Part shown: in pieces, positions 21,502 through 21,811 of the stretch
Numbering within the stretch: position 1 is the first letter of the stretch
Layout: the number at the start of each line of letters is the position of its first letter
IMG/VR virus record: IMGVR_UViG_2909309443_000006
Coordinates: 1 to 40,283 of that record
Direction: 5' to 3' (one strand)
DNA length: 40,283 bases
Origin: a virus
Taxonomy: Duplodnaviria > Heunggongvirae > Uroviricota > Caudoviricetes
Translations under genes and position numbers: made by a program
Notes under the pieces: generated by a model
Seen by the model: the letters and a program-made list of their open reading frames with translations, nothing else
Told to the model about the DNA's origin: nothing
Database searches by the model: none

Positions 21502-21576
21502 TGGAGCGGGTAGCGGGAATCGAACCCGCATCATCAGCTTGGAAGGCTGAGGTAATAGCCATTATACGATACCCGC
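21502..21576 (-). tRNA. tRNA-Gly (anticodon UCC)
   Basis: 75 nt cloverleaf ending CCA; anticodon loop CUUCCAA; near-identical to E. coli glyT as remembered. Confidence 0.85.
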
Positions 21577-21579
21577 ATA

Positions 21580-21655
21580 TGGTGCCGACTACCGGAATCG
21601 AACTGGTGACCTACTGATTAAAAGTCAGTCGCTCTACCTACTGAGCTAAGTCGGC
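21580..21655 (-). tRNA. tRNA-Lys (anticodon UUU), one A-C mismatch in T-stem
   Basis: 76 nt; acceptor GCCGACU/AGUCGGC; D-arm UAGCUCAGUAGGUAGAGC; anticodon loop CUUUUAA; CCA encoded. Confidence 0.7.
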
Positions 21656-21657
21656 AC

Positions 21658-21734
21658 TGGCCCGCCACCGAGGACTCGAACCTCGCACACTCAACTTAAA
21701 GGGTTGACGCTCTTTCCTGATGAACTGGTGACGG
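21658..21734 (-). tRNA. tRNA-like gene with non-canonical anticodon loop (CCUUUAA, C at position 33); possibly degenerate tRNA-Lys
   Basis: 77 nt cloverleaf foldable (acceptor with one G-U, T-stem CGAGG/CCUCG, T-loop UUCGAGU, CCA encoded) but position 8 is C and U33 is replaced by C. Confidence 0.45.
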
Positions 21735-21735
21735 T

Positions 21736-21811
21736 TGGTGGCCCTTGCTGGATTTGAACCAGCGACCTGGCGATTATGAGTCGCTCGCTCTCACCACTGA
21801 GCTAAAGGGCC
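21736..21811 (-). tRNA. tRNA with CAU anticodon, ileX/ileZ-like (tRNA-Ile2; Met not excluded)
   Basis: 76 nt; GGCCCUUUAGCUCAGUGGUGAGAGC...CUCAUAA...GGUUCAAAUCC...CCA; resembles E. coli ileX as remembered. Confidence 0.8.

Follow-up and report, generated by a model that had tools for sequence, protein, structure and literature searches.

The closest described counterpart of the gene cluster analysed here is the ileZ-argN-argO array of Stx phages (933W type; Stx2a_WGPS8, AP012540), which is located downstream of Q and upstream of late or lysis genes. For the tRNA-Thr(UGU) of another phage, SfI, an argument of rare-codon supply was made (PMC3636060). The host genes to which such arrays may be compared include the thrU-tyrU-glyT-thrT operon of Escherichia coli K-12. 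Alloacceptor anticodon shifts, or tRNA remolding, in which the body of one acceptor family carries the anticodon of another, are known from the nuclear genomes of eukaryotes and the mitochondrial genomes of metazoans (PMC3923123, PMC4783518). Finally, phage T5 encodes variants of the tRNAs targeted by the nuclease AriB, and these variants neutralise the PARIS defence (PMC12409363).

The stretch of DNA under study (hereafter, the window) comprises the 40,283 nucleotides of the IMG/VR record IMGVR_UViG_2909309443_000006 and is a complete-looking lambdoid prophage of E. coli. The minus-strand genes are ordered, in the direction of transcription, as cII, O, a DnaC-like loader, Ren, hok/sok, a Doc-like toxin, RusA, Q, a kinase, a phosphatase, a methyltransferase, the tRNAs, the lysis genes, terminase and the structural genes; the plus strand beyond them encodes a cI-like repressor and a RecE-like exonuclease. 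The Q-like antiterminator gene (25127..25822, minus strand) matched PHROG 304 with an E value of 1e-102; the terminator scan placed a strong hairpin behind it, at 25080-25059. Directly upstream of the tRNAs is the DNA methyltransferase gene (21861..22910, minus strand; PHROG DNA methyltransferase families, E 1e-104 to 1e-106; PADLOC MTase_II, 4e-159). Between the tRNAs and the first holin gene there is a non-coding stretch (21063..21404, minus strand) with three terminator-like hairpins at 21404-21384, 21227-21208 and 21078-21063, obtained from a pattern scan that found 8 such sites against 3.0 expected from shuffles. Two holin genes and an M15 endolysin gene are located downstream of the hairpins, the lysis genes starting at about 21088. 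This agrees with the initial annotation, which had placed the cluster between the methyltransferase and a terminator that precedes the lysis genes, at the site occupied by tRNA genes in Stx phages; the latter point is sustained by an identical ileZ and by a homologue of argN at the same position. Since the tRNA genes lie within the interval from Q to the lysis genes, late and Q-dependent expression is likely, and in lytic growth the tRNAs presumably derive from the transcript that runs from Q to the lysis genes.

The cluster consists of four tRNA-shaped genes arranged head-to-tail on the minus strand, from 21811 to 21502, and named here slots 1 to 4 in that order. All four were called by ARAGORN, with anticodons CAU, UUU, UUU and UCC, respectively. 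They are separated by only 1, 2 and 3 bases, and the encoded CCA, read from the sequence, is the 3' end of every one, in accordance with the close packing and encoded CCA first reported for them. Slots 1, 3 and 4 scored 72.5, 74.2 and 65.6 bits with the Rfam tRNA model (E about 1e-14), well above the curated threshold of RF00005 (29 bits), so that chance does not account for the cluster. The same three genes possess U8 and U33. An identical cluster is present in ETEC O6:H16 strain 2014EL-1346-6 (NZ_CP024232).

Slot 1 (21736..21811, minus strand) is an ileZ-type tRNA-Ile2 gene with anticodon CAU. It was 100% identical to ileZ of Stx2a_WGPS8 and showed eight differences with respect to ileX of K-12, so that its earlier designation as ileX/ileZ-like was correct; RefSeq relatives are annotated as tRNA-Ile. 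Its pairs C4-G69 and C5-G68 take the place of U4-A69/A5-U68, which are included among the identity elements for methionine (PMC9976931, Table 1), and the CAU anticodon is presumably lysidine-modified. Slot 4 (21502..21576, minus strand), a tRNA-Gly(UCC) gene, had likewise been recognised as glyT-like. It differs from K-12 glyT in two bases, mutually paired, in which U6-A67 replaces the host C6-G67 in a compensatory manner. In comparison with the Stx phages, argO is replaced here by copies of the host genes thrU and glyT; slots 3 and 4 are two bases each from these K-12 genes, and the other members of the K-12 operon, tyrU and thrT, are absent from the cluster.

Slot 3 (21580..21655, minus strand) had been presented as tRNA-Lys(UUU). 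The anticodon was indeed UUU, but a lysT-type identity could not be maintained. The gene showed two differences from K-12 thrU, A26G (21630) and G35U (21621), against 22 from lysT, and close prophage relatives have an unmodified thrU, with anticodon UGU, at this position; it is, therefore, a threonine tRNA body with a lysine anticodon. The UUU allele of slot 3 is rare in complete E. coli genomes, being present in 6 out of 5,426, all among the ETEC strains listed, and it reached about 7% of the viral-contig sample. It co-occurs both with an arginine tRNA in slot 2 and with the C33 form of slot 2 described below, which shows that the allele came through recombination at least once and rules out an error of sequencing.

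The identity set for lysine comprises A73, U34, U35 and U36, and that for threonine G1-C72, C2-G71, G35 and U36 (PMC9976931, Table 1). Slot 3 has A73 and the other three lysine elements; of the threonine elements, G35 is lost, and G1-C72 and C2-G71 are kept. With the full lysine set present and G35 lost, slot 3 should be charged with lysine and would read AAA and AAG, as a rare alloacceptor anticodon shift. The likeness to tRNA remolding lies in the point substitution that places the anticodon of one family on the body of another, from Thr to Lys in slot 3 and, as regards the anticodon, from Arg to Lys in slot 2. On the other hand, the present case concerns an accessory gene of a prophage, beside intact host genes of both families.

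Slot 2 (21658..21734, minus strand; 77 bases) was called by ARAGORN as tRNA-Lys(UUU). It has C8 (21727), U11, C33 (21701), the anticodon UUU at 21700-21698, with a C-to-U change of position 35 at 21699, G73 and the encoded CCA; the anticodon loop reads CCUUUAA. The initial annotation had already pointed out C8, C33 and this loop in an odd member of the cluster. The near-universal U8 and U33 are thus missing, its best tRNA-clan match in Rfam (16.7 bits) is below the 29-bit threshold, and RefSeq left it unannotated in a genome that is identical to the window across the region. Among 333 distinct ARAGORN tRNA calls in the fetched loci, C33 was confined to the lineage of slot 2. The cloverleaf of the window gene is nevertheless complete: the stems measure 7/4/5/5 bp, the anticodon loop has 7 nt, none of the 21 stem pairs is mismatched (three are G-U), and the T loop, G18G19 and A20 are kept. 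Minimum-free-energy folding was discarded as a test of this gene, because it missed the cloverleaf even for thrU-type and ileZ genes.

The affiliation of slot 2 is to tRNA-Arg. It shares with argN of the Stx phages the C1-G72 acceptor, the D arm and the T arm, and 60 out of 77 bases (17 differences); from the intact Arg(UCU) allele of the prophage of ETEC strain TW10690 it differs at 11 positions. The loop of argN is CUUCGAA, with U33 and anticodon UCG, in contrast to CCUUUAA and C8 in slot 2. In a genome-collection scan, the signature formed by the D arm and T loop of slot 2 belonged to tRNA-Arg in 120 out of 120 cellular matches sampled; the scan returned ordinary cellular tRNA-Arg genes only and no enterobacterial relatives. 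Judged by position and sequence, slot 2 has an Arg-type body and is a homologue of argN. A link between G26 and the UUU anticodon, found together in slots 2 and 3, was considered and dropped, since argN of the Stx phages also has G26, which is thus ancestral in slot 2.

These data bear on what the two UUU genes could insert. For slot 2, the lysine anticodon is present, but the discriminator is G73 in the window and U73 in the commonest C33 allele. The arginine identity set is A20, C35, U/G36 and A/G73 (PMC9976931), and slot 2 retains A20 and G73, just as slot 3 retains two threonine pairs of the acceptor stem, G1-C72 and C2-G71. It might accordingly be proposed that slot 2 inserts arginine at AAA and AAG, and that slot 3 inserts threonine at lysine codons. 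We consider such recoding highly improbable: the major determinants, C35 for arginine and G35 for threonine, are both lost, the lysine set of slot 3 is complete, and proteome-wide replacement of lysine by arginine or threonine would be costly, with no evident benefit.

To place slot 2 among its relatives, alleles from viral contigs, phage genomes and complete E. coli genomes were compared. Many members of the lineage in viral contigs have U33 and the arginine anticodons UCU or UCG, the usual arrays being Met(CAU)-Arg(UCU)-Thr(UGU)-Gly(UCC) or Met-Arg(UCG)-Arg(UCU), and intact Arg alleles occupy slot 2 in close prophage relatives. In the 29 distinct U33/Arg alleles, 99.3% of stem cells were paired, five pairs showed changes on both sides, and the covariation score was reached by none of 500 shuffles; the U33 lineage is a real and constrained family of phage tRNA-Arg. 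The C33/UUU allele is a derived branch of it, separated by U33C and C35U. Its 19 alleles were 93.7% paired, with no compensatory change and covariation not above shuffles, although the power of this test is low because the clade is young. In Yersinia phage YeP1, another gene of the lineage, whose anticodon arm is scrambled, bears the annotation pseudo-tRNA.

The C33/UUU allele is widespread. In the phage collection it was found only in E. coli phages (15 records), in the viral-contig sample it occupied about 94% of the E. coli-type ileZ-X-thrU-glyT clusters, and its core was present in 796 of the 5,426 complete E. coli genomes (about 15%), with up to three copies per genome. It is spread over different phage backgrounds. 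The loop is, therefore, no peculiarity of the window. The initial annotation had missed this, as well as the nature of the odd member as a mutated tRNA-Arg. A literature search that covered mainly papers outside subscription journals yielded no account of the C33/UUU allele, and none of a shifted anticodon in a prophage cluster. As a separate observation, the UUU anticodon arose independently on two bodies of the same module, from UCU in slot 2 and from UGU in slot 3.

The C33 copies form a series of increasing damage. The 5' halves in the 796 genomes comprised an intact-looking form with U8 (326), the form of the window with C4U, U8C and C11U (184) and a form with a 1-base deletion in the D stem, the PPompW type (222), so that just over half of the copies have one of the two further lesions. 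The Rfam tRNA score decreased from 55.6 bits for the Arg(UCU) allele and 53.6 bits for argN (UCG) to about 40 bits for C33 with U8, and to at most 16.7 bits for the window type, no score being reported for the PPompW type; the neighbouring tRNAs scored 65-74 bits in every phage examined. Among the matches listed, only the U8 form was annotated in RefSeq, as tRNA-Lys. Two independent and common derivatives that damage the structure, both arisen after the loop change, are what relaxed constraint predicts. Slot 2 is probably an eroding relic that has lost decoding. Of the three options first offered for the C33 member (a pseudogene, a decoy or a tRNA with altered decoding), the pseudogene fits best, given the loss of score, the lack of compensatory covariation and the two damaging derivatives.

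Other features of the variation are less one-sided. The common stem variants of the C33 clade (C2U, C4U and C11U) remain paired as G-U and pair-breaking variants are rare, which is the pattern that continuing constraint would give. Allele diversity in this clade (19 alleles in 115 contigs) is not above that of the intact argN(UCG) clade (8 in 47). The conservation of the CCUUUAA loop, with about 1 variant seen and an estimated 2 or so expected, does not go beyond the expectation for a young clade. The A-C mismatch in the T stem of the commonest C33 allele was rejected as a sign of damage, since host-identical thrU and ileZ genes have A-C mismatches too.

The diversity of slot 2 was 3-15 times that of the neighbouring tRNA genes and lower than that of the adjacent spacers and flanks, the flank figure being inflated by mosaic replacement; for this reason the flanks were abandoned as a neutral yardstick and provide no clean control. 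Within slot 2, the acceptor stem and the T arm are intact in nearly all alleles, and the D arm and the anticodon loop vary. RNase P recognises the acceptor stem and the T arm. This distribution, the diversity below that of spacers and flanks, and the tight and conserved spacing of 1 and 2 bases to the neighbours would suit a gene that does not decode, either a tRNA-shaped processing element or spacer, acting as an RNase P/RNase E handle for the release of ileZ and the thrU copy, or an untranslated decoy that binds a host factor. Competition by overexpressed viral tRNAs has in fact been raised as a possible way of inhibiting AriB (PMC12409363). However, the neighbours are complete tRNAs, which RNase P alone can process, and ordinary Arg tRNAs are likewise found in this slot, which therefore needs no special element; in addition, slot 2 lacks the AriB recognition bases and would be a poor decoy for this nuclease. 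A role of this kind appears improbable to us.

The origin of the particular allele found in the window could be traced. Over 3.3 kb, the window and the prophage of ETEC TW10690 showed 12 differences, all of them between 21735 and 21689, with essentially none on either side. This patch of about 47 bases (21689..21735, minus strand) covers the 5' two-thirds of slot 2, where TW10690 has an intact Arg(UCU) gene. The 5' part of the window gene agrees with the C8/C33 allele seen, for example, in strain 510016, and its 3' third (T stem CCUCG, G73) is of the Arg-allele type. The simplest account is a short gene conversion by which a damaged allele overwrote a working tRNA-Arg gene. The donor may have been another prophage copy, as a single genome may contain the C33 core as many as three times. 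That the overwriting was tolerated suggests that the Arg gene was dispensable.

The codon usage of the window fits the usual role of rare-codon supply. ACA was used at 14-17 per 1000 in window genes (about 7 per 1000 in the host E. coli), GGA at 11-14 per 1000 (host, about 8) and AUA at up to 13.6 per 1000 (host, about 4.4; a ratio of 3 at most). In the early genes and in those from Q to the methyltransferase, AGA and AGG were 3-7 times as frequent as in the host. AAA was not enriched in the late genes, and elsewhere its ratio to the host did not go beyond about 1.4.

Taken together, we somewhat favour the interpretation of the cluster as a known kind of late-region module of rare-codon tRNAs that includes one eroding tRNA-Arg relic and one thrU copy with a shifted anticodon. 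The ancestral module comprised ileZ for AUA, a tRNA-Arg(UCU) of the argN lineage for AGA and AGG, a captured host thrU for ACA and a captured host glyT for GGA, tRNAs that would read A-ending codons commoner in the phage than in the host. Two of the four genes, slots 2 and 3, have changed in the window. In slot 2, the allele is the common derivative defined by U33C and C35U, to which C4U, U8C and C11U were added; the gene would have received it through the conversion patch of about 47 bases, from another prophage copy onto an intact Arg(UCU) gene, and the relic would persist owing to its position, only 1-2 bases away from neighbours that are retained. Slot 3 is thrU modified by G35U and A26G and, following the published identity rules, should be charged with lysine. 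Under a model of supply, both changes to UUU are losses, as each drops the supplier of phage-enriched codons and adds one for an abundant codon.

This last point leads to a different proposal. PARIS AriB, PrrC and RloC are E. coli anticodon nucleases that destroy the host tRNA-Lys(UUU), and P2 Old is the classic excluder of lambda. UUU and UGU are anticodons of host tRNAs attacked by PARIS AriB and P2 Old (PMC12409363, PMC12445682). AriB cleavage is abolished by U39A and reduced by A41C and U16C (PMC12409363), and Old destroys tRNA-ThrU by cutting at paired CNG motifs in the anticodon stem (PMC12445682). The UUU variants, mainly that of slot 2, could then be selected substitutes for the host tRNA-Lys(UUU) destroyed by nucleases, a possibility to which we give a low probability, together with its detail, by which slot 2 would decode AAA and AAG while its differing anticodon arm and D loop escape cleavage. 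Slot 2 has C16, G39 and U41, its arm reading U36AAGUU41, so that by the AriB rules it should not serve as a substrate and should escape this nuclease. UUU arose twice in the module, once from UCU and once from UGU. The phage shows no enrichment of AAA, and codon supply fails, therefore, to explain a lysine tRNA. Besides, the C33 allele extends across phage backgrounds and 15% of genomes. In other lambdoid phages, the tRNA genes that follow Q are for Asn(GUU) and Thr(UGU), and Asn(GUU) is in that slot without a reason in codon use (PMC3636060); together with Lys(UUU), these tRNAs make up the AriB target set.

The comparison with T5 illustrates the two sides of this proposal. The tRNA-Lys of T5 and slot 2 are phage genes with the anticodon of a host tRNA that is targeted by a nuclease, and both lack U39, A41 and U16. 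However, the T5 molecule is a canonical and functional tRNA, whereas C33 and, in the window, C8 displace two of the most conserved tRNA bases in slot 2, where the discriminator is G or U instead of the A73 of lysine identity. Just over half of the C33 copies have undergone further damaging changes, and compensatory evolution was not observed. Slot 3, in contrast to the T5 tRNA, keeps U39, A41, U16, UAAUCA and the paired CUG/CAG motifs, that is, all published AriB and Old determinants, and should thus match the host tRNAs in sensitivity to AriB and P2 Old; its UUU allele is, moreover, rare (6 genomes). No tRNA nuclease gene was detected in the subset of window ORFs scanned with PADLOC and PHROG. 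Concerning position 33, a literature search on the requirement of PrrC gave nothing usable. The yeast gamma-toxin reportedly tolerates U33C. In view of these data, it is doubtful that the C33/UUU derivative of argN is a working lysine decoder, or a nuclease inhibitor, that serves late translation under attack by PARIS, PrrC or RloC, with U33C and a foreign anticodon stem blocking cleavage and with the Thr-to-Lys shift of slot 3 as a second, independent move in the same conflict. The preferred reading continues to be the rare-codon module with an eroding tRNA-Arg relic and an anticodon-shifted thrU copy.

A cluster of this type is in itself familiar in lambdoid prophages, so that the main value of the analysis is corrective. 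The gene called tRNA-Lys by ARAGORN and in some RefSeq records is a mutated tRNA-Arg, probably decaying, in hundreds of genomes, and its annotation in RefSeq is inconsistent, being present in some records and absent in others; its clean tRNA-Lys(UUU) neighbour is a threonine tRNA with a changed anticodon. Analyses of codon supply by prophages that trust anticodon calls at face value would be misled. Additionally, the natural alleles are ready-made substrates for testing tRNA genes of temperate phages against tRNA-targeting defence, as in T5. If counter-defence were true, lambdoid phages would finish late translation despite the destruction of tRNA-Lys(UUU) by PARIS, PrrC or RloC.

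The C33/UUU gene of the tRNA cluster, a tRNA-like member of argN (tRNA-Arg) lineage with the anticodon loop CCUUUAA, had relatives in other phage genomes. In Yersinia phage YeP1, a gene at positions 2502-2579, annotated as tRNA-Pseudo-TTG, shared its acceptor stem and T arm and had a scrambled anticodon arm; it was located downstream of the antiterminator gene Q and upstream of ileZ-like and glyT-like genes. The PPompW prophage of O157-type strains carried at 2594-2669 of the fetched locus a C33/UUU gene with a deletion of one base in the D stem, a form matched exactly in 222 complete genomes, and the next gene after it was argO, rather than thrU and glyT. 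In the ETEC O6:H16 genome NZ_CP024232 the tRNA cluster was identical to that of the window; downstream of it, a holin pseudogene and tail-fibre fragments were found in place of the lysis region, and for this reason that prophage copy is considered degraded, unlike the window.

With respect to homologues of the third gene of the cluster, the phage thrU copy, the replacement of U by C at positions 16 and 20 of the D loop was a common allele, detected in 41 contigs among the viral-contig loci (L252 onward) and also in Escherichia coli strain 510016. In tRNA-Lys, the change U16C has been reported to impair cleavage by AriB, the tRNA nuclease of the PARIS defence system (PMC12409363). Among loci L252-L371, one IMG/VR contig had a homologue of the fourth gene in which a glyT body bore the loop CUUACAG, called Val(UAC) by ARAGORN; this reflects either an error in assembly or a further case in which a tRNA body captured from the host has changed its anticodon.

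A promoter-like site (TTAAGA-18-TATGAT) was located at 21405-21434 on the minus strand, closely downstream of the tRNA genes, and was followed by hairpins at 21384-21404 and 21208-21227 on the same strand, with a strong terminator approximately 190 bases past the site. This spacing recalls the arrangement of lambda pR', 6S RNA and tR'. Another strong terminator was found directly after Q (25080-25059), and either of these two strong terminators, past the tRNAs or after Q, may mark the late promoter.

Other elements were detected elsewhere in the window. Rfam matched a sok antitoxin RNA (28673-28848, minus strand; 121.6 bits), whose presence implies a hok/sok module. It also matched a DicF RNA at 35703-35754 on the plus strand (70.8 bits); both RNAs are typical of Qin/Rac-like prophages. 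The nin-like region contained an ORF (27624-28118, minus strand) matching the PHROG Doc-like toxin family (E 2e-51).

Between Q and the methyltransferase gene, a Ser/Thr kinase gene (24218-25057, minus strand) matched the defence models mad6, PD-T4-6 and Stk2, with E values down to 3e-40. The adjoining gene (23478-24221, minus strand) is a PP2C phosphatase according to RefSeq in the H1 genome, identical to the window across the tRNA-cluster region, and its sole match in this analysis was a PHROG family of unknown function. Considered jointly, the two genes look like a defence-like pair within the Q-to-lysis interval.
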